Part shown: piece by piece, positions 45,152-60,033 of the stretch
Position numbering within the stretch: the first letter of the stretch is position 1
Layout of the letters: every line of letters starts with the position of its first letter
Origin: Rhizobiaceae bacterium
Lineage (GTDB): Bacteria > Pseudomonadota > Alphaproteobacteria > Rhizobiales > Rhizobiaceae
Reading direction: 5' to 3'
Assembly (NCBI GenBank): GCA_040830725.1
Contig: JBFOMG010000004.1
Span: 7,567 to 71,566 of the forward strand
Length of the DNA: 64,000 bases
Program-made: the position numbers and the translations under genes
The notes under the pieces: model-generated
Databases searched by the model: none
Told to the model about the DNA's origin: nothing
What the model saw: only the letters and a program-made list of their open reading frames with translations

Positions 45152-45225
45152 GGATCGAACCCTTCGAGAACGGCGAAGTTGCGATTTGCGCAGACCAAAT
45201 AAGCCAATCTCCAGATTGACCTGAC

Positions 45226-45241
45226 ATAAAGAATTCTTTAT
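45226..45241. promoter_or_regulatory. perfect 16-bp palindrome ATAAAGAATTCTTTAT, candidate operator upstream of the homocysteine methyltransferase gene
   Basis: Read directly from the sequence, ending 32 nt upstream of the ATG at 45274. It shares the half-sites ATAAAGA/TCTTTAT, at identical 2-nt spacing, with the site at 56693-56714. Confidence 0.5.
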
Positions 45242-45273
45242 ATGTTTATTTCTTCCAGCTTTGCAGGTGAACC

Positions 45274-46379: not shown

Positions 46380-48461
46380 TTAGTCCAACGCGTCGGCAAT
46401 GCGCACAAGCGACAGGAACTCGGCGCGGTATCCATAGGGGTCCGAGCCCCGTGCCGCCTGCGCCAACTTCAAAATCTCGTCGTAACCGTAGTTCGATGTC
46501 TGATCGGTATCACGAAGCTTTTGGCCGAATGCCGCCACCGCCACCGAGAAACGCTGATCATCACTTGCTGACCCAAGGCCATCGACTTCGTTGCTTACAG
46601 TCACGGGCGTCGTGATCAGCTTGCTTGTATCCTCATCGGGCAATTTGTAGCGCAGTTTCAGGAACGCATATTCATCTTCAACGCCAACTGGCCTATCGCC
46701 GTCAAATTGCACGGGTTTTTCGCCTTGCGCGTCCTGATTGGCTGCGTAACGCAGCGCGTCGCTGGTCACTGCCGGACTTCCGATCGGTGTGATCTCATAG
46801 ATTGCAGTCACAGAGTGACCGGAGCCGATATCGCCTGCGTCGATACGATCGTTGTTGAAATCCTCACGTTTCAGCGCACGGGTTTCATAACCGATCAGCC
46901 GGTATTCAGCGACACGGGCCGGATTGAACTCAACCTGGATCTTCACATCCTTGGCAATCGGGAAAAGTGTTGATCCGGCTTCCTCGACAAGCGTTTTTTG
47001 CGCCTCGGCGACCGTGTCGATGTAGGCAGCCTGCCCGTTACCGTTTTGCGCCAATGTTTGCATCAGCTGGTCGTTGTAATTGCCGTGACCAAACCCGAAT
47101 ACTGACAGAAAGATGCCGCTTTCGCGTTTTTTCTCGATGATCCGCTTTAGCGACGCATCGTCTGATACGCCGACATTGAAATCGCCGTCTGTTGCCAACA
47201 TGACACGATTGACGCCATCCTTGACGAAGGCCTGCTCCGCCAGCCGGTATGCCTGCTCGATTCCAGCCGCACCCGCTGTTGACCCCCTAGCCCCCAATGA
47301 ATCGATCACATTGAGAATTTTCGATTTCTCGGAAGCCTTTGTCGGCTCAAGCGCGGTGCCGGCGCTACCAGCGTAGGTCACGATGGATATCGTGTCTTCC
47401 GCATCAAGCCGGTCCAAAAGCATCCTGAAAGAGGTTTTCAATAGCGGCAATTTGTCGGGCTGGTTCATTGAACCGGACGTGTCGATCAGAAAGACAAGAT
47501 TGGCTCGCGGTTTTTCCGATGGCTGAACGTCATAGCCCTTGATCGCCACATGCATCAGCTTGGTGTTCTCATTCCACGGTGACGGCATGACCGTGACCGT
47601 GGAATTAAAAGGTACGGAAATGTTCTCAGGCCCGGCCCAATTGTAAGGAAAATAGTTGATCATTTCCTCAACACGCACCGCATCGGGATTAGGCATACCG
47701 TTTCGCATCAGCGCGCTTCGCACGAACGAATAGGAAGCCGTATCCACGTCGATAGAGAAAGTTGAGACTGGATCGCGCAACGCCTGCTTGACCGGATTGG
47801 TATCAAAATTCTCAAACCGGTCCCGGTTCTGCTCTTCGACGATCACCGGCTCTGGAAGCATGATACGACCCTTTTCGGCCAGCAACTTGGGTTGAGGCGC
47901 CGCTGCCTGCAGGGTTCCGACTGCGTTCGGCCGAGCCTCATCTGCCACGACCAGATTTTCAGCCTCGCGCAGACCATCGACTGCGCGCTCCTCTTTATCA
48001 GAGTCCGCGCGCCCGGCAGTAACCGTATCGACTTCGAGCTGTTGGCGAACCCGCTTGTCGTCAGCGCTGGTTGCCTCGCCTTTCAGTTTCTCTTCCTGCG
48101 GCCTGAAATTGGCGTCCTTCTTGCCGGCAGTCTCGTTTATATCGGCCGGCTCCAGCCTGTCGCCGATCGCAAACGGGGTCTCCTGTGCCAGATACCAAGC
48201 TGCATAGCCTGCGATTGGCAGTGCCAGAATTCCGGCAATTGTCGGTGTCGCACTCAATTTTCGTTCCATCATTGCTCTCCAAAAATCTGCCGCCCGTGAA
48301 CTCAGACGATTTCCAGAAGCTGATCCTTGGGTTGAACTTGAGAATTTTTGCTCGTCGAACGCATCCATTGCCGCTGAAAGCGCGGCGGCGCGCCGTTTTG
48401 CATCCGGTTTTTCCATGGGCATCTTGCCCAGCAGTTTCAATTCACGATCATCCATGATCAT
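46380..48461 (-). CDS. membrane-anchored anti-sigma-like N-terminus fused to a periplasmic von Willebrand factor A (YfbK-type) domain
   Basis: 693 aa. One TM segment (TIAGILALPIAGYAAWYL). VWA MIDAS motif DTSGSM. ATGA overlap with the ECF sigma gene. Confidence 0.8.
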   Translation of the reverse strand: MIMDDRELKLLGKMPMEKPDAKRRAAALSAAMDAFDEQKFSSSTQGSASGNRLSSRAADFWRAMMERKLSATPTIAGILALPIAGYAAWYLAQETPFAIGDRLEPADINETAGKKDANFRPQEEKLKGEATSADDKRVRQQLEVDTVTAGRADSDKEERAVDGLREAENLVVADEARPNAVGTLQAAAPQPKLLAEKGRIMLPEPVIVEEQNRDRFENFDTNPVKQALRDPVSTFSIDVDTASYSFVRSALMRNGMPNPDAVRVEEMINYFPYNWAGPENISVPFNSTVTVMPSPWNENTKLMHVAIKGYDVQPSEKPRANLVFLIDTSGSMNQPDKLPLLKTSFRMLLDRLDAEDTISIVTYAGSAGTALEPTKASEKSKILNVIDSLGARGSTAGAAGIEQAYRLAEQAFVKDGVNRVMLATDGDFNVGVSDDASLKRIIEKKRESGIFLSVFGFGHGNYNDQLMQTLAQNGNGQAAYIDTVAEAQKTLVEEAGSTLFPIAKDVKIQVEFNPARVAEYRLIGYETRALKREDFNNDRIDAGDIGSGHSVTAIYEITPIGSPAVTSDALRYAANQDAQGEKPVQFDGDRPVGVEDEYAFLKLRYKLPDEDTSKLITTPVTVSNEVDGLGSASDDQRFSVAVAAFGQKLRDTDQTSNYGYDEILKLAQAARGSDPYGYRAEFLSLVRIADALD

Positions 48462-49048
48462 TCTTCCCTGGCCCGTTTGGCCAAATCCTTGAGCCGCTTC
48501 TTCGCTTCATGGATGTGCCAGGAGATGGTCGTCTCGGCACATCCCAACACATCGCTCGCATCTCCGTGCGACAGGCCCTCGCCATAAACCAGCAATACCG
48601 CGTCGCGCTGTTTGGCGGGCAGTTGCTGTACCAGCCGCCACAGTTCTGCAGCTCGCGCTTCTTCATCACCGGCGCCGCTATCACCGAACAGCTTGCTGTG
48701 TTCACCCCAGGCCTCTGCCTTTACGGCCTCGCGATTGCTTTTGCGCAACAAGTCCCGGGCAGCGTTAATCGTCAATGCATAGAGCCAGGTGGTAAACCGG
48801 CTTTCGCCCTTGAAATTTTGGATTGCCCTGGCGAGCCGAACACAGACTTCCTGTGTGATATCCTCGGCGTTGGCACGATCGCCACACCAGCGCAGCGCCA
48901 CCCGAAAGACAAAGTCGTAGTGCCGCTCGACAAGCATGGCAAAGGCCGCACGGTCACCCTCGACCGCACGCCCCACCAATGCACCGTCTGACGTGGCATC
49001 CAACCCGCCTTCCGGCACCTCTGCTTCGGCAAGCGTCATGACCTTCAT
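48458..49048 (-). CDS. ECF-type RNA polymerase sigma-70 family factor
   Basis: 196 aa. Region 2 (HYDFVFRVALRW...AEDITQEV) and region 4 (LPAKQRDAVLLVYGEGLSHGDASDVLGCAETTISWHIHEAKKRL). Confidence 0.9.
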   Translation of the reverse strand: MKVMTLAEAEVPEGGLDATSDGALVGRAVEGDRAAFAMLVERHYDFVFRVALRWCGDRANAEDITQEVCVRLARAIQNFKGESRFTTWLYALTINAARDLLRKSNREAVKAEAWGEHSKLFGDSGAGDEEARAAELWRLVQQLPAKQRDAVLLVYGEGLSHGDASDVLGCAETTISWHIHEAKKRLKDLAKRAREE

Positions 49049-49889: not shown

Positions 49890-51455
49890 TCACGTGAAAG
49901 CGTCGGGCATCGATTCCTTTTTCTTGGCAATGAATGCCTGCAACGCTTCATCAATGCCCGCATCGAGTTCAGGGGCCTGATAGCTGCTCAACCATTGGCG
50001 CGCCAATTCATTGGCCCTTTGATTTGCGGCTTTCTCACCTTCGGCCTGCCATTGCTCAAACGAATTGTTGTCGGCAATTGTCGAACGGTAGAAGGCGGTC
50101 TGAAAGTTCGCCTGCGTATGGCTGCAGCCAAGATAGTGGCTGCCCGGGCCAACTTCGCGAATGGCATCCAGCGCCTGGTCGTTCTCGGTCAGCGAAACAC
50201 CCTCGGCGATGCGCTGTTGCATGCCCAGTTGATCGATATCCATCATGAACTTTTCGTAGGAACTGACGAGGCCGCCTTCCAGCCAACCAGCGGCGTGAAG
50301 GACAAAATTCGTCCCTGCGAGCACTGTGGAGTTGATTGTGTTGGCGCTCTCATAGGCAGCCTGTGCATCGCTCAGTTTCGAACCACACAAGGACCCACCG
50401 GTTCGAAACGGCAATCCCAGTCTGCGCGCCAATTGTGCGGCTCCATAAGACACGAGTGTTGGCTCAGGGGTGCCGAAGGTCGGCGCACCCGATTGCATGG
50501 AAATTGAAGAGGCAAAAGTGCCAAACAATACCGGTGCACCTGGCCGGACCAATTGCGTAAACGCCGCGCCTGCCAAAACTTCAGCCAGAACCTGGGTCAG
50601 CGTTCCTGCCACGGTGACCGGGCTCATGGCACCGGCGAGGATGAACGGTGCGATAATGCAGGCCTGGTTGTTGCGGGCGTAAACCTTGGCCGCTCCAACC
50701 ATTGTCTCGTCAAAAACCATTGGTGAATTTGCATTGATAAGGCTGACCAACACAGTGTTGTCGGTAACAAACTGCTCGCCGAACAGGATCTTGCACATTT
50801 CGACAGTGTCCTCGGCGCGTTCAGGCGCTGTGACCGATCCCATGAACGGCTTGTCGGAATAACGGATATGGGAATAGATCATGTCGAGGTGGCGCTTGTT
50901 GACCGGTATGTCCACCGGTTCGCACACGGTGCCGCCTGAGTGATGTATTGCCGGCGCCATATAGGCCAGTTTCACAAAGTTGCGAAAATCCTCAATGGTT
51001 GCATACCGGCGCTCACCTTCGAGATCGCGTACAAATGGCGGCCCGTAGACAGGCACGAAGACGGTCGCATTGCCGCCAATCTGCACCGATCTTTCGGGGT
51101 TGCGCGCGTGTTGCGTAAAAACCGGAGGAGCGGATTTGATCAGCGCACGACACAGGCCTTTTGGAAAATGAACTCTTTCACCCTTAACCTCGGCACCAGC
51201 GTTCCGCCAGAGTTCCAGCGCCTCGGTATCATCGCGAAATTCAACACCAATTTCTTCCAGAATCGTATCAGCGTTGGCCTCGATCAGAGCCAGACCTTCG
51301 TCATCAAGCACTTCAAACGGCTTCAATGCCCGCTTTATGTAGGTCAACTGCGTTCCCGGCCCGCCTCCGGATCGTGCGGCGCGCCGGGCGGCCGCACCGC
51401 CACCCGCACGAGCACTGCGCCTTGATCTTCCGCCGTCTGCAGAAACTTCGTTCAT
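49890..51455 (-). CDS. MttB-superfamily (trimethylamine methyltransferase family) non-pyrrolysine methyltransferase, probable quaternary amine:corrinoid methyltransferase
   Basis: 521 aa, uninterrupted frame with no in-frame TAG. Family-typical TIM-barrel segments. N-terminal Arg/Gly/Ala-rich leader GGRSRRSARAGGGAAARRAARSGGG. Confidence 0.88.
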   Translation of the reverse strand: MNEVSADGGRSRRSARAGGGAAARRAARSGGGPGTQLTYIKRALKPFEVLDDEGLALIEANADTILEEIGVEFRDDTEALELWRNAGAEVKGERVHFPKGLCRALIKSAPPVFTQHARNPERSVQIGGNATVFVPVYGPPFVRDLEGERRYATIEDFRNFVKLAYMAPAIHHSGGTVCEPVDIPVNKRHLDMIYSHIRYSDKPFMGSVTAPERAEDTVEMCKILFGEQFVTDNTVLVSLINANSPMVFDETMVGAAKVYARNNQACIIAPFILAGAMSPVTVAGTLTQVLAEVLAGAAFTQLVRPGAPVLFGTFASSISMQSGAPTFGTPEPTLVSYGAAQLARRLGLPFRTGGSLCGSKLSDAQAAYESANTINSTVLAGTNFVLHAAGWLEGGLVSSYEKFMMDIDQLGMQQRIAEGVSLTENDQALDAIREVGPGSHYLGCSHTQANFQTAFYRSTIADNNSFEQWQAEGEKAANQRANELARQWLSSYQAPELDAGIDEALQAFIAKKKESMPDAFT

Positions 51456-51756: not shown

Positions 51757-52455
51757 ATGTCTGATGACGAAATCATTCTGTCCGAACTGAGTGACGACGA
51801 GCTCGTGCCGCAGATGCACGATGATCTTTATGACGGGCTGAAGGAGGAAATCGAGGAAGGTACCCAGATTCTGCTCGATCGTGGCTGGATGCCTTATGAT
51901 GTACTGACCAAAGCTCTGGTCGAAGGTATGCGCATCGTGGGTGAGGATTTCCGTGACGGTATCCTGTTTGTGCCGGAAGTCCTGCTATCAGCCAATGCGA
52001 TGAAGGCTGGCATGGCGATTCTGCGCCCACTGCTTGCGGAGACCGGCGCCCCAAAACTCGGCAAGATGGTCATTGGTACCGTCAAGGGTGATATTCACGA
52101 TATCGGTAAAAACCTCGTCGGCATGATGATGGAGGGAGCCGGCTTTGATGTGGTCGATCTCGGCATCAACAATCCGGTCGAAAACTATCTCGAGGCCATT
52201 GAGCGCGAGGAACCCGACATTGTCGGCATGTCGGCATTGCTCACAACAACCATGCCCTACATGAAAGTGGTCATCGATACGATGGTTGAGAAGGGCATCC
52301 GTGACGACTACGTCGTGCTTGTAGGTGGCGCCCCGCTGAACGAGGAATTCGGCAAGGCTGTTGGAGCCGACGCTTACTGCCGAGACGCTGCTGTAGCGGT
52401 TGAAACCGCCAAGGAGTTCATGTCGCGCCGTCACAATCAACGCGCCACTGCGTAA
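51757..52455 (+). CDS. corrinoid (cobalamin-binding) protein, cap helical domain plus B12-binding Rossmann domain
   Basis: 232 aa. DxHxxG motif GDIHDIGKNLV, then SALLTTT and GGAPL. N-terminal 35 aa contain 14 Asp/Glu and 1 Lys. Confidence 0.9.
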   Translation: MSDDEIILSELSDDELVPQMHDDLYDGLKEEIEEGTQILLDRGWMPYDVLTKALVEGMRIVGEDFRDGILFVPEVLLSANAMKAGMAILRPLLAETGAPKLGKMVIGTVKGDIHDIGKNLVGMMMEGAGFDVVDLGINNPVENYLEAIEREEPDIVGMSALLTTTMPYMKVVIDTMVEKGIRDDYVVLVGGAPLNEEFGKAVGADAYCRDAAVAVETAKEFMSRRHNQRATA

Positions 52456-53173: not shown

Positions 53174-53815
53174 TTGGACATTTCGACCCGAAAGAAGAGG
53201 CAAAACGGCGAAATCCGGACCCAAAAGGTCCGAATAATTGCCTGTGGAATGATCGCTCGTGAAGTTCTTGCAGTTAAAGAACGTCACGGACTGGAAAACC
53301 TGGATCTGGTGTGTTTACCGGCGCAATTTCACTATTACCCGGATCGTATCGCCCCGGCGATGGAAGAAGCGATTCAGCAGGCAAAAGAGGAAGGCGTTGA
53401 GCACATACTCGCCGGATATGCAGATTGTGGAACCGGCGGGCATCTTGATCTTGTCTGTGAAAAATACGGCATAGACCGAATCGACGGTCCTCATTGTTTT
53501 GCGTTCTATCAAGGCATGAAGTCCTACGAACAGGTTGCTGACGAGGACATGACGGCGTTCTACATGACTGATTTTTTGTGCCGGCAGTTTGACGCTTTTT
53601 TCATGAAACCGCTTGGCCTTGATAAGCACCCTGAACTGGCGAGCGACTATTTCGGCCACTATGAGAAACTGGTGTATCTTGCTCAGACGGATGACCCGTC
53701 TCTCGACCAGGTGGCTGAAGACGCGGCCAGAATGTTGGGACTTCGATACGAGCGTCGATATACGGGATATGGCGATTTGACGACATCACTGTTGGCCGCC
53801 ACCGCGACGCCATGA
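53174..53815 (+). CDS. DUF1638 domain protein
   Basis: 213 aa. VRIIACGMIAREV N-terminus and GYADCGTGG motif as I remember for DUF1638. TTG start 7 nt after AGGAG. Confidence 0.75.
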   Translation: MDISTRKKRQNGEIRTQKVRIIACGMIAREVLAVKERHGLENLDLVCLPAQFHYYPDRIAPAMEEAIQQAKEEGVEHILAGYADCGTGGHLDLVCEKYGIDRIDGPHCFAFYQGMKSYEQVADEDMTAFYMTDFLCRQFDAFFMKPLGLDKHPELASDYFGHYEKLVYLAQTDDPSLDQVAEDAARMLGLRYERRYTGYGDLTTSLLAATATP

Positions 53816-54684: not shown

Positions 54685-54987
54685 ATGGCTGATCTCACCA
54701 TCGTCTATTGGCGCGATATTCCCGCGCAGGTCATTGTCAAGAAGGGTCGCGCAAATGCCAAGCGCGAACTTCCGCTTCGATTCACAGAAGCAATTGATAT
54801 GTGTGCCATGCGTTCCGGTGCTGACGATACCGATGCCTATCTCGCCGAATGGCGCCGGGGAGAACCTGTTTCAGTTGGAGATGACCTCGAGATCGAAGCT
54901 GACAAGGCGATGAACGAAATCGATTCCGCCTATCCCAAGGATCGGCTGGTGGCGTTGGTCAATGCCGGTGGTATCGACAATGGCTAA
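54685..54987 (+). CDS. small conserved protein of the family usually annotated 'virulence factor' domain, found next to MTHFR_C genes
   Basis: 100 aa. MADLTIVYWRDIPAQVIVKKGR. Overlaps the next gene by 8 nt (ATGGCTAA). Confidence 0.55.
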   Translation: MADLTIVYWRDIPAQVIVKKGRANAKRELPLRFTEAIDMCAMRSGADDTDAYLAEWRRGEPVSVGDDLEIEADKAMNEIDSAYPKDRLVALVNAGGIDNG

Positions 54988-55564
54988 AAATACACCAATC
55001 GTCACTCAGGCAACCAAGGTGCGTAAAGCCGCGCCAAAGCTTGCGTATAAACCGGCGCATGTCAGTCCGACTCAACGGTTGCGCAAGGGATATACAATCA
55101 GGCTTTGGTCGGTACGGCATTCCCGCAGCCTGGAGTGGCTCTATGAGCAGTTCGCCAATATCTTTTTGATGCTGCACCCATTCTGGAAGGCGGTCGGCTA
55201 CCATCGCGCCGAAAAGCCGGTGACGTTTGTGGAAAGGCGTGTCAAGGGCCTATTGTTCGACTGCCGCATGTGTGGACAGTGCATCTTGTCGTCGACGGGC
55301 ATGTCTTGTCCCATGAATTGCCCAAAACAGCTTCGCAACGGCCCATGCGGTGGCGTTCGTGCTGACGGCAATTGCGAAGTCGAGCCTGACATGCCTTGTG
55401 TTTGGGTTCAGGCGTGGGAAGGCGCTGAGCGCATGCGGGAAGGTGAGCAGAACCTCGCAGCAGTGCAAAAGCCGGTCGACCAATCTTTGCGGGAAACCTC
55501 TTCCTGGTTGCGGGTAACGGCATCTGCAGCGGCTGAACGAGCCGCCAAGAATGGTGGCAAGTAA
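54980..55564 (+). CDS. methylenetetrahydrofolate reductase C-terminal-domain protein (MetV-like, Cys-rich)
   Basis: CRMCGQCILSSTGMSCPMNCPKQLRNGPCGG motif. ATG at 54980 preferred over track start 54962. Confidence 0.8.
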   Translation: MAKNTPIVTQATKVRKAAPKLAYKPAHVSPTQRLRKGYTIRLWSVRHSRSLEWLYEQFANIFLMLHPFWKAVGYHRAEKPVTFVERRVKGLLFDCRMCGQCILSSTGMSCPMNCPKQLRNGPCGGVRADGNCEVEPDMPCVWVQAWEGAERMREGEQNLAAVQKPVDQSLRETSSWLRVTASAAAERAAKNGGK

Positions 55565-56667
55565 TGCAAAACGGTAAGCGACCACCTCAACGGGACGAAA
55601 ATCCAGCCGGTATCGATCTGCCGCTCGATCCACTGCCCGGCCATACATCACGCAGCCGTCTTGAGCGGATTCTTCGCCGTGGAGAGTTTGCTGTCACAAC
55701 CGAACTCAACCCTCCAGACAGCGCCAATCCGGAGGACGTCTACGAGCGCGTAGCCATCTTCGATGGCTGGGTCGATGGTATCAACGCTGTCGATGCGTCG
55801 GGTGCAAACTGCCACATGTCTTCTGTCGGCATCTGCGCGCTTCTGACCCGCATGGGTTATGCACCGATCCTGCAAATTGCTTGTCGTGACAAAAACCGTA
55901 TTGCCATTCAGGGTGACGTGCTCGGCGCTGCTGCCATGGGTGTTGCCAACATACTCTGCCTGACCGGAGATGGCGTGCAGGCAGGAGACCAACCTGGCGC
56001 AAAGCCCGTCTTCGATCTCGATTGCATGAGCCTTTTGGAGACCATTCGCACCATGCGCGATGAGTCGAAGTTTTTGTCAGGCCGCAAACTGACGACGCCG
56101 CCGGAAGTATTTCTGGGCGCGGCAATCAATCCGTTTGCCCCGCCCTATGATTTCCGCCCGCTGCGTCTGGCAAAGAAGATCGCGGCCGGTGCCCAGTTCG
56201 TTCAAAGCCAGTATTGCTTTGACGTGCCGATGTTCCGTGAATACATGAAACGGGTCAACGACATGGGGTTGACCGAGGAGTGTTTCGTGATGTGCGGCGT
56301 CGGTCCCCTGGCTTCAGCCAAGACCGCACGTTGGATCAGGTCAAATGTTCCCGGAATTCATATCCCCGACCAGGTTATCGAACGGCTGGAAGGCGCCGAA
56401 AACCAAAAGCAGGAGGGGAAGCGTCTTTGCATCGACATCATCAATGAGGTCAAAGAGATCGAAGGCGTATCCGGCGTCCACGTCATGGCCTATCGGCAGG
56501 AAGAGTTTGTTGCTGAAATCGTCCACGATTCCGGTGTGTTGAGGGGTCGCAAGCCATGGCAACGTGAACCCCGCGCTGACGATGTGCTGGTTGCCGAAAG
56601 GTTGGAAGAAGTATTGCAGAATCCATCCGCGGAAAGCCCCGCGGATGTCATCAGGGACACCGTCTAG
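55564..56667 (+). CDS. metF: methylenetetrahydrofolate reductase catalytic subunit
   Basis: 367 aa. FAVTTELNPP, ILQIACRDKNR and ILCLTGD motifs. TAATG overlap with the MetV-like gene. Confidence 0.88.
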   Translation: MQNGKRPPQRDENPAGIDLPLDPLPGHTSRSRLERILRRGEFAVTTELNPPDSANPEDVYERVAIFDGWVDGINAVDASGANCHMSSVGICALLTRMGYAPILQIACRDKNRIAIQGDVLGAAAMGVANILCLTGDGVQAGDQPGAKPVFDLDCMSLLETIRTMRDESKFLSGRKLTTPPEVFLGAAINPFAPPYDFRPLRLAKKIAAGAQFVQSQYCFDVPMFREYMKRVNDMGLTEECFVMCGVGPLASAKTARWIRSNVPGIHIPDQVIERLEGAENQKQEGKRLCIDIINEVKEIEGVSGVHVMAYRQEEFVAEIVHDSGVLRGRKPWQREPRADDVLVAERLEEVLQNPSAESPADVIRDTV

Positions 56668-56692
56668 CGACGGTTGAAACCAATCACACAGC

Positions 56693-56714
56693 GATATAAA
56701 GAAATCTTTATATC
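56693..56714. promoter_or_regulatory. 22-bp palindrome GATATAAAGA-AA-TCTTTATATC, candidate operator immediately upstream of the pterin-binding methyltransferase gene
   Basis: 10-bp perfect arms read directly from the sequence. It lies between the metF stop (56667) and the ATG at 56728, and has the same core as the site at 45226-45241. Confidence 0.5.
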
Positions 56715-56727
56715 ATTGGAGAAAATA

Positions 56728-57808: not shown

Positions 57809-58000
57809 ATGGATGCACAGACGATATGCTTCGCAGACCGCGATACGGGTGAGGAATTCGATCACTTTCTTGCCGACACGGCCGTGAAAGATGAAACGAT
57901 CTTCCTGCGCACAGACGACGTTGCAAAACTTGTTGATCCGACAACGGAAGTGGTGATTTATGACGCCGTCGCGGATAGTGAAAAGCGATGGCGGAAATGA
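57809..58000 (+). CDS. possible 63-aa acidic protein between the methyltransferase and activase genes
   Basis: ATG-initiated part of track ORF 57590..58000: MDAQTICFADRDTGEEFDHFLADTAVKDETIFLRTDDVAKLVDPTTEVVIYDAVADSEKRWRK. Its stop overlaps the activase start by 13 nt. No clear RBS. Confidence 0.3.
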   Translation: MDAQTICFADRDTGEEFDHFLADTAVKDETIFLRTDDVAKLVDPTTEVVIYDAVADSEKRWRK

Positions 58001-60033
58001 CCGATCCCCTCATTCTCTTCATGCCATCGGGCAAACGCGGGCGATTTCCCGCGGGAACGCCCATTCTCGATGCGGCGCGCGAACTGGGCGTGTATGTGGA
58101 GAGCGTCTGCGGTGGACGTGGCATCTGCGGGCGTTGCCAGATCGAAGTCCAGGAAGGCCAATTCGCCAAACATGGCATTACCTCAGCCAAGGACCACATT
58201 TCACCGGTCGGTTCGAAGGAAACCCGTTACGCCGAAAAGCGTACGTTGAAGCCGGGACGACGCCTCTCCTGTTCATCGACCATCATTGGAGATCTCGTTA
58301 TCGATGTGCCTGCCGATGCGCAGGTCAACGAACAAGTCGTGCGCAAAGCAGCGATCGATCGTGTCATCGAACGCAATCCCGCCGTTCAGCTTTGCTATGT
58401 CGAGGTTGACGAACCCGACATGCACAAACCGCTTGGAGATCTCGACCGTCTTGAGGCGGTTTTGGAAGCCGATTGGGGCTGGAAGGACCTCCTTGTTTCC
58501 CAACATCTGCTCCCGGATGTGCAGAAGATACTGCGTAAGGGCGGCTGGGCAGCAACTGCCGCCATCCACATGGATTTGGAATCGTCGCGGCCGTCAATCG
58601 TTGCACTATGGCCTGGTTTGAAAAACGAAGCCTATGGAATTGCTTGCGATATCGGCTCGACCACGATCGCCATGCACCTTGTGTCGCTGCTTTCCGGCCG
58701 GATCATCGCGTCTTCCGGTACATCCAATCCGCAGATCCGTTTTGGCGAAGACCTGATGAGCCGGGTTTCATATGTAATGATGAATCCGGACGGGCGCGAA
58801 GCCATGACCAGGGCGGTTCGCGAGGCAATCAACGATCTCATAGCGAAAGTCTGCGAGGAAGGTGGGATCACACCCGAAGACATTTTGGACGCGGTGTTCG
58901 TCGGCAATCCGATCATGCATCACCTGTTTCTCGGAATTGACCCGACCGAGCTGGGCCAGGCTCCGTTCGCGCTTGCCGTGTCTGGTGCGGTTCATACCTG
59001 GGCAAGCGAGATTGGTCTCGACATCAATCAGGGTTCGCGTGTGTACATCTTGCCGTGCATTGCCGGTCATGTAGGCGCCGACGCCGCAGCCGCCACGTTG
59101 TCTGAAGGGCCGCACCGTCAAGACAGCATGATGTTGTTGGTCGATGTCGGAACCAATGCAGAGATCGTGCTGGGAAACTCAAACCGTGTTGTGGCAGCCT
59201 CATCTCCGACCGGCCCGGCTTTCGAGGGTGCTGAAATATCGTCAGGGCAACGGGCAGCGCCTGGCGCCATAGAACGGGTGCGCATTGATCCGGAAACCCT
59301 GGAGCCGAGATTTCGGGTTATCGGCGTGGACCATTGGTCTGACGAAGAAGAATTTGCCGATGCAGCCGAGAAGACTGGCGTCACCGGCATTTGCGGTTCT
59401 GCAATCATTGAAGTTGTCGCCGAGATGTACCTGGCAGGCATCATCTCCGAGGATGGTGTCGTCGACGGAAGTCTCGCTGCAAGAAGTTCCCGGATCATCG
59501 CCGACGGCCGAACCTTCTCCTATCTGGTTCACGAGGGGAACCAGAAAATCACCGTTACCCAGAATGATGTTCGCGCCATACAGCTGGCAAAGGCAGCACT
59601 TTATGCGGGCATCAAGCTGTTGATGCAAAAACAGGATGTGGAATCCGTTGACGTCATTCGCTTCGCTGGTGCGTTCGGCTCCTTCATTGATCCGAAATAC
59701 GCAATGGTTCTGGGATTGATCCCCGATTGCGATCTCGGCGAGGTGAAGGCTGTCGGCAACGCCGCCGGAACCGGCGCTCTCATAGCATTGCTCAATCGAG
59801 ACTACCGGCGTGAGATCGAGACCACAGTCCGCAGAATCGAGAAAATCGAAACCGCCCTAGAGCCGGACTTCCAGCAATTATTCGTCAACGCGATGGCGAT
59901 GCCAAACAAGGTCGATCCTTTTCCCAAATTGGGGAAGCAGGTGGCACTGCCGGAGCGCAAAGTGCTTGAAACTGCGGAGACCAATGGAGGAAGACGCAGA
60001 CGGCGCGACGGCGGGCGGCGCAGTCGCAGTTAG
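57988..60033 (+). CDS. corrinoid reductive activase (RamA/RACo type): N-terminal 2Fe-2S ferredoxin plus ASKHA ATPase domain
   Basis: 681 aa. CGGRGICGRCQIEV plant-type ferredoxin motif. DIGSTTIAMHLV and VDVGTNAEIVLG ASKHA phosphate-binding motifs. C-terminal tail GGRRRRRDGGRRSRS. Confidence 0.88.
   Translation: MAEMTDPLILFMPSGKRGRFPAGTPILDAARELGVYVESVCGGRGICGRCQIEVQEGQFAKHGITSAKDHISPVGSKETRYAEKRTLKPGRRLSCSSTIIGDLVIDVPADAQVNEQVVRKAAIDRVIERNPAVQLCYVEVDEPDMHKPLGDLDRLEAVLEADWGWKDLLVSQHLLPDVQKILRKGGWAATAAIHMDLESSRPSIVALWPGLKNEAYGIACDIGSTTIAMHLVSLLSGRIIASSGTSNPQIRFGEDLMSRVSYVMMNPDGREAMTRAVREAINDLIAKVCEEGGITPEDILDAVFVGNPIMHHLFLGIDPTELGQAPFALAVSGAVHTWASEIGLDINQGSRVYILPCIAGHVGADAAAATLSEGPHRQDSMMLLVDVGTNAEIVLGNSNRVVAASSPTGPAFEGAEISSGQRAAPGAIERVRIDPETLEPRFRVIGVDHWSDEEEFADAAEKTGVTGICGSAIIEVVAEMYLAGIISEDGVVDGSLAARSSRIIADGRTFSYLVHEGNQKITVTQNDVRAIQLAKAALYAGIKLLMQKQDVESVDVIRFAGAFGSFIDPKYAMVLGLIPDCDLGEVKAVGNAAGTGALIALLNRDYRREIETTVRRIEKIETALEPDFQQLFVNAMAMPNKVDPFPKLGKQVALPERKVLETAETNGGRRRRRDGGRRSRS

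Follow-up and report, generated by a model that had tools for sequence, protein, structure and literature searches.

SahR and split methionine synthases

SahR is reportedly a SAH-responsive repressor for which an architecture, autoregulation and a core regulon have been published (Novichkov et al. 2014, Environ Microbiol 16:1; Leyn 2014). The SahR of Desulfovibrio alaskensis G20 is the experimental prototype, and the deltaproteobacterial SahR motif is slightly unlike the alphaproteobacterial one (PMC4239095). The SahR motif has been described as a 20-bp palindrome, and in Rhizobiales the regulon scores are 1.0 for sahR, ahcY and metF, 0.9 for metH, 0.5 for metK, 0.3 for bhmT and 0.1 for metH2 (Leyn 2014, PMC4239095). 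In 30% of the Rhizobiales regulons, SahR also targets the gene listed as 'bhmT', which is of the mtgE type (PMC4239095). In Ensifer aridi, boxes were found at ahcY, metH, metK and bhmT, and sahR expression is highest in a sahR deletion mutant, i.e. the sahR promoter is derepressed (PMC8877191). Other bacteria also use dedicated repressors of methionine genes. SamR of the Xanthomonadales shares ~30% identity with SahR; its motif measures 24 bp and its regulon is larger. MetJ of the Gammaproteobacteria, from an unrelated family, recognizes tandem metboxes with SAM as its co-repressor. SamR, MetJ and SahR are alike in that they read a metabolite of the SAM cycle and bind repeated or palindromic boxes. 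In Rhodobacterales, Mtg-type genes are reported to be controlled mainly by MetR and SAM-SAH riboswitches (Leyn 2014, PMC4239095).

A split methionine synthase has been described in Phaeobacter (Price 2018, PMC5764234). The MtgBCDE hub of Ruegeria, which includes such a split enzyme, has glycine-betaine demethylation as a further function (Mausz 2025, PMC12478193); a search of this study and of a related 2025 bioRxiv preprint found no mention of SahR, a promoter or an operator.

Here we analyzed a 64-kb stretch of DNA (hereafter the window) on contig C4 of a 4.74-Mb Rhizobiaceae assembly that is 98.65% complete. Two palindromes in the window are predicted to be operators of SahR, a SAH-sensing ArsR-family repressor with a SAM-methyltransferase-fold domain, a reading to which we assign a probability of about 0.92. 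In common with the SahR regulons of Rhizobiales and other Alphaproteobacteria (RegPrecise), the genome encodes a regulator combining an ArsR wHTH with a SAM-methyltransferase fold and contains a 20-22 bp palindromic box, an autoregulated sahR linked to metF, and boxes at ahcY and at methionine-synthase genes. It differs from them in that no MetH reactivation domain was found in the searched genomes of its genus, a second box is found at a predicted internal promoter of mtgD, and metK is outside the regulon. The domain architecture is also shared with the Desulfovibrio prototype, from which relief of SAM-cycle repression by SAH is assumed for the present system by analogy. With the MtgBCDE-RamA hub, the window shares the same separate modules MtgE, MtgD, MtgC and MtgB, a RamA-like activase and DUF1638. 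The feature as a whole is one more ordinary example of the SahR regulon already published, and its sole part that may be new is the target of the second site, namely a predicted internal promoter that serves mtgD and probably ramA.

Two palindromic boxes in the window

The boxes and the surrounding genes are as follows (MtgB through metF2 were assigned by domain/family search):

45223..45244, strand not applicable: predicted SahR box before mtgE (site 1), GACATAAAGAATTCTTTATATG; PWM score 25.7, third in the genome
45274..46284, plus strand: mtgE, PF02574 (7e-60), NCBIfam equivalog PRK07534 (556.6 bits, cut-off 338)
49890-51455, minus strand: MtgB, MttB family
51757-52455, strand not given: MtgC corrinoid protein
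53174-53815, strand not given: DUF1638
54962-55564, plus strand: MetV-like (DUF5981)
55564-56667, plus strand: MetF-like (MTHFR), metF2
56693..56714, strand not applicable: predicted SahR box before mtgD (site 2), GATATAAAGAAATCTTTATATC, perfect 10-2-10 palindrome; PWM score 34.7, second in the genome
56728..57702, plus strand: mtgD, methyl-THF:corrinoid methyltransferase (pterin-binding module), PF00809 (5e-28), PRK07535 (405 bits, cut-off 259)
57988..60033, plus strand: ramA/RACo-type reductive activase of corrinoid protein, with RACo_C_ter, Raco_middle, RACo_linker and Fer2 domains

Read directly from the sequence, site 1 has a perfect 16-bp core, ATAAAGAATTCTTTAT (45226-45241), which 32 nt separate from the ATG (45274) of the PF02574 homocysteine S-methyltransferase gene. 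The core of site 2, ATAAAGAAATCTTTAT (56696-56711), lies inside a perfect 10-2-10 palindrome (56693-56714). It is flanked by two genes of the same strand, an MTHFR gene whose stop lies 28 nt before the core and a Pterin_bind gene (PF00809) whose ATG (56728) follows the core after 16 nt. An earlier sequence-only reading had pointed out the palindrome 32 nt ahead of the start codon and its equally spaced repeat before the pterin-binding gene, and on re-reading both agree with the sequence. The 16 bp that it took as the unit stand as the perfect core, but not as the full unit, as both cores sit within 22-bp units (45223-45244 and 56693-56714), which form the functional unit. It had also seen no other full copy in the window, and the number stays at two when up to two mismatches are allowed (no further core copies at ≤2 mismatches in the 64 kb). 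Only 0.05 sites would be expected against the two observed, and two were not reached in any of 100 shuffles of the window that preserved its dinucleotides (0/100).

In the middle of site 1, the bases GAATTC (45231-45236) make up an EcoRI site. This hexamer is kept within the genus and not outside it, and is therefore regarded as a by-product of the free central dinucleotide described below.

The predicted regulator and its genome-wide regulon

The sequence-only reading had found no regulator gene adjacent to either site, which holds for the window; the gene encoding the predicted regulator is located on another contig:

L004:477-1484 on contig C5, minus strand: sahR, 335 aa, ArsR HTH plus SAM-methyltransferase fold

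Pfam searches identified an HTH_5 domain (residues 22-66, 4e-13) and a Methyltransf_11/25 domain (residues 161-257, 6e-24) in the SahR protein, and NCBIfam likewise returned ArsR/SmtB plus methyltransferase matches. The glycine-rich motif I (DLGTGTG) of the class-I methyltransferase domain is intact. Among solved structures, no full-length SahR-like protein was found, the matches being limited to separate ArsR or methyltransferase domains. Directly 3' of sahR and on the same strand, a MTHFR-like (metF-type) ORF was recognized by eye from its translation. Contig C5 also carries, divergent from sahR, a TrmO_N-domain gene (L004:1573-2055, plus strand; tRNA-methyltransferase-O-like, SAM-dependent fold). 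As the SahR box is located ~50 nt upstream of this gene, it may be a fifth regulon member.

Eighty close SahR homologs with 61-96% identity were identified in Rhizobiaceae/Phyllobacteriaceae, including Mesorhizobium, Chelativorans, Nitratireductor, Aquamicrobium and Phyllobacterium, and the single-copy homologs of Mesorhizobium, Chelativorans, Nitratireductor and Phyllobacterium match over their full length in the same identity range (61-96%). The SahR proteins named in the literature, of which the present protein is a putative ortholog, include SMc01842 of S. meliloti. In addition, mll1589 of Mesorhizobium and Meso_2029 of Chelativorans are listed as SahR (Leyn 2014, PMC4239095). A box (≤2 mismatches) is present upstream of 78 of the 80 sahR orthologs, mostly 17-20 nt before the start codon, and the consensus derived from these sahR-upstream sites is GATATAAAGATATCTTTATATC.

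In the whole genome (4.74 Mb), the core occurs in three perfect copies and one copy with a single mismatch. Control permutations of the half-site in the form X-NN-rc(X) gave no copies for 41 out of 41, which together with the window shuffles places the motif far above the random-expectation frequency that the sequence-only reading had named as a refutation. The third perfect copy is located on contig C58, about 110-115 nt 5' of ahcY (PF05221, 2e-144), and the one-mismatch copy, GATATAAAGATATGTTTATATC, lies on contig C5, 17 nt before the start codon of the 335-aa sahR. A PWM trained solely on sahR-upstream sites from other Rhizobiaceae/Phyllobacteriaceae was then used to scan the whole genome. 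Its top four scores, sahR (41.1), mtgD (34.7), mtgE (25.7) and ahcY (17.9), fall on the same four sites, and the scan yielded no further credible ones. Two lower matches with scores of 14.2 and 9.9 (C16:25581 and C30:49270) have unrelated contexts and were dropped as regulon members.

The gene with the highest score in the genome is sahR itself, whose ~20-bp palindromic operator is the predicted autoregulation site. The boxes at ahcY, sahR-metF, mtgE and mtgD cover the core regulon of ahcY, metF and methionine synthase. This combination of a domain fusion, a self-site and targets among ahcY, metF and methionine-synthase genes equals the published definition of a SahR regulon (Leyn 2014, PMC4239095). 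The box itself is probably the published SahR motif, judging from orthology, regulon content and palindrome length. A full-text literature search for the half-site turned up unrelated papers only, and no motif is given in the DvH sRNA preprint or the G20 mutant-library paper. No box was found at metK in this genome, which agrees with its score of 0.5 in the published Rhizobiales regulon.

The proposal of the sequence-only reading, a dimeric regulator of a methionine or methyl-group regulon, is strengthened by the remaining two genome sites, which precede ahcY and the autoregulated sahR-metF pair. It is supported as essentially right, the system being the already-published SahR system. Among the members it had expected, ahcY and metF-type genes were recovered by the genome search and metK, which has no site, was not.

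Conservation across relatives

The motif is present in 38 of 41 related genomes at ~4 copies each; in most of these genomes, hardly any copies of the reversed control pattern occur. As the sequence-only reading had asked, the motif is kept upstream of orthologous genes: boxes precede ahcY in 28 of 30 relatives, mtgE orthologs in 20 of 24 and mtgD orthologs in 16 of 26, with a gap of 13-16 nt to the mtgD ATG throughout the genus. The spacing between the paired sites of the window (11-13 kb) is also kept within the genus. In alignments of the upstream regions, the arms of the box are invariant and the central dinucleotide is free (AA, TT, AT, GT, CT, AC); the flanks are unconserved apart from -35-like or short promoter-like blocks and the Shine-Dalgarno sequence (SD).

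Promoter geometry at the boxes

The following promoter elements were assigned at the two window sites, the hexamers being probable:

45217..45222, plus strand: probable mtgE -35, TTGACC; TTGAC is the sole conserved block 5' of the box in 11 aligned genomes
45240..45245, plus strand: probable mtgE -10, TATATG, with a 17-nt spacer from the -35; TATATC in most relatives
56674..56679, plus strand: probable mtgD -35, TTGAAA, with the core GTTGA (56673-56677); internal promoter between metF2 and mtgD
56718..56722, plus strand: mtgD Shine-Dalgarno, GGAGA, 3 nt past the box and invariant in the alignment

The candidate mtgE -10 shares the last five bases of the right arm of the box. Given the positions of TTGACC and TATATG, the mtgE box would occupy the whole -35/-10 spacer and run into the -10. 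At mtgD, GTTGA is kept in 10 of 10 aligned genomes immediately past the stop of the upstream gene, and the box starts 13 nt after the TTGAAA hexamer. Since it trails a conserved TTGA -35 by 13 nt, the mtgD box would cover the -10/+1 region. The sahR promoter has the same architecture as mtgD (TTGnnn, 13 nt, box, 5-7 nt, GGAG, ATG), and in this TTGnnn-13 nt-box layout we infer that the -10 must fall in the left arm and the transcription start inside the box. Transcription is predicted to start near 45251-45253 at mtgE and near 56705-56710 at mtgD. The predicted layouts at mtgE, mtgD and sahR all fit steric exclusion of RNA polymerase.

The geometry at ahcY appears to differ from that of the other three promoters. 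Here the box is located ~110 nt before the ATG, CATATG is conserved upstream of it, and TTGCC-N17-CTGnTA is conserved 3 nt downstream (L003, L194-L208). Depending on which of these two elements is taken, the box would lie either just downstream of a -10 or upstream of a -35, so the putative promoter assignment is ambiguous. At the two window sites, a generic and stricter sigma-70 scan yielded no promoter, and a terminator scan returned weak minus-strand matches only, which were judged irrelevant.

Alternative explanations

Instead of being DNA operators, the palindromes might act as RNA, forming mRNA-leader hairpins that serve in attenuation, processing or message stability. Site 2 folds as a 9-bp hairpin of -10.8 kcal/mol (z = -5.5) and would be transcribed if metF2 transcription reads through, but such a z score is expected from any perfect palindrome, and the fold of site 1 is weak (22-mer, -2.5 kcal/mol; z = -0.4 in context). 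Furthermore, site 1, flanked by the conserved -35 and -10 elements, is for this reason probably untranscribed, a U-tract is absent after both sites, and the SD is not covered by the hairpin. In over 100 instances, the arms never vary, no compensatory pair changes occur and the loop-equivalent centre is variable, a pattern predicted for a dimeric DNA-binding protein and not for an RNA helix. The Rfam scan of the whole window, which also bears on a riboswitch, returned nothing at gathering score, and the same box precedes the gene of an ArsR-family regulator in 78 of 80 genomes, which makes a role as RNA hairpin highly improbable. The riboswitch classes SAM-II, SAM-SAH and SAH were considered as well and set aside, as neither a match to an Rfam covariance model nor covarying helices were found.

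The boxes could also bind another dimeric regulator, such as a MetR-like LysR protein or a betaine/one-carbon regulator, with the ArsR-methyltransferase merely being co-regulated. A catabolic regulator is conceivable because mtgD-ramA has a second use in glycine-betaine demethylation (PMC12478193). However, the betaine-specific genes mtgB and mtgC have no box and no inverted repeat lies between them, and the box is tied to the ArsR-methyltransferase gene in 78 of 80 genomes, which disfavours such a regulator. Among these 78 carriers the box is found mostly 17-20 nt before the gene, a classic sign of autoregulation, the regulon recovered here (sahR-metF, ahcY and parts of methionine synthase) equals the published SahR core, and MetR was found in none of the Rhizobiales studied (Leyn 2014, PMC4239095). 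We consider a different regulator very unlikely. AT-rich palindromes do occur in intergenic DNA and site 1 holds the EcoRI site GAATTC, so that an origin by chance or from a decayed mobile or repeat element might be proposed, in which case the palindromes would have no regulatory role. Yet only 0.05 sites are expected in the window, composition-matched controls gave no copies in the genome, the position is kept across the whole family and beyond, and genomes outside the genus do not retain the GAATTC centre; the probability of a chance origin is negligible. Predicted SahR operators are the reading retained below.

Predicted target genes and the split methionine synthase

NCBIfam annotates mtgE as an equivalog of the 'betaine-homocysteine S-methyltransferase' type. 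The gene is monocistronic, the next gene being convergent, and by analogy with the system of Mausz 2025 (PMC12478193) its product is assigned as the putative homocysteine-binding module of a split B12-dependent methionine synthase. Site 1 is a known type of interaction, since bhmT is a listed SahR target (Leyn 2014) and has a box in the Ensifer aridi study. Convergent with mtgE (46380-49048, minus strand), an ECF-type sigma factor gene (48458-49048, minus strand) overlaps by 4 nt a gene (46380-48461) whose 693-aa product contains VWA and YfbK_C domains; this pair is apparently unrelated to the SahR boxes.

Upstream of mtgD, a small ORF with a PF13769 'Virulence_fact' domain, the MetV-like DUF5981 gene and the second MTHFR gene overlap mutually (54685-56667, plus strand), and this cluster ends 25 nt before the 22-bp mtgD box. 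As the canonical metF is located downstream of sahR on another contig, the genome contains two MTHFR systems, one of them behind a SahR box. Downstream of mtgD, ramA is probably co-transcribed, judging from the sequence of the 285-nt gap, in which no terminator-like or promoter-like site was found. The gap also contains a possible acidic small ORF of 63 codons (57810-58000, plus strand), whose stop (57998-58000) overlaps the ramA start. The betaine-specific mtgB and mtgC received no box in the genome PWM scan, and their shared intergenic region contains no inverted repeat.

The MetH reactivation domain (PF02965) is absent from this genome. None of the other six genomes of the genus encodes it above the Pfam cut-off, G005 having one sub-threshold match of 23.5 bits. 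Because no MetH reactivation domain was found in the genomes searched, mtgE and mtgD, probably with RamA, are taken as parts of the split methionine synthase of the genus, an enzyme of the type described in Phaeobacter. For the same reason, the methionine-synthase arm of the regulon rests on mtgE and on the second box at mtgD, probably with ramA. No description of this second target, the internal mtgD-ramA promoter, was found in the SahR and Mtg literature examined.

Among the 26 relatives with MtgD (L147-L172), a box precedes mtgD in 15 of the 18 without the MetH reactivation domain versus 1 of the 8 with it. The mtgE box is kept in both groups. The MtgD tree holds only ~3 independent contrasts, a number at which a sign test cannot reach significance, and the association between the mtgD box and MetH is therefore suggestive and not demonstrated. 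An extension of SahR control to the internal mtgD-ramA promoter specifically in MetH-losing lineages is accordingly a tentative and rather doubtful proposition. The pattern would fit recruitment of mtgD-ramA once the split system had become the sole B12-dependent methionine synthase.

Proposed mechanism and implications

With SAH as the presumed effector and the sign of regulation taken from Desulfovibrio SahR (summarized in PMC4239095 and PMC8877191), the following model can be proposed. A role of SahR as repressor is indirectly backed by the overlap of the boxes with conserved promoter-like elements and by the derepressed sahR promoter of the Ensifer aridi deletion mutant (PMC8877191). At low SAH, a SahR dimer would occupy the 22-bp boxes (GAyATAAAGA-NN-TCTTTATrTC) at four loci and hold down sahR-metF, ahcY, mtgE and mtgD, probably with ramA; on the mtgE and mtgD boxes it would shut out RNA polymerase. 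Methylation reactions would raise SAH, upon which SahR would leave the DNA. Its release would increase expression of ahcY for SAH hydrolysis, of metF for the supply of methyl-THF, and of mtgE and mtgD, probably with ramA, for the conversion of homocysteine to methionine, with the Mtg genes replacing MetH in this genus.

SahR control of Mtg modules is no new kind of system. The analysis assigns a four-operator regulon, a regulator and a putative effector logic to an uncharacterized Rhizobiaceae genome. Genes annotated as 'betaine-homocysteine methyltransferase' and 'methyl-THF:corrinoid methyltransferase' appear to be regulated as methionine-cycle genes, which supports a role of mtgE and mtgD as the methionine synthase of the organism. 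To the MtgBCDE hub, this would add a regulatory layer in the form of SAH-dependent control of MtgE, MtgD and probably RamA, and not of MtgB and MtgC. If SahR control has indeed been extended to mtgD-ramA in MetH-losing lineages, a SAH signal would steer the shared corrinoid hub (MtgC/MtgD/RamA) between methionine synthesis and glycine-betaine demethylation.
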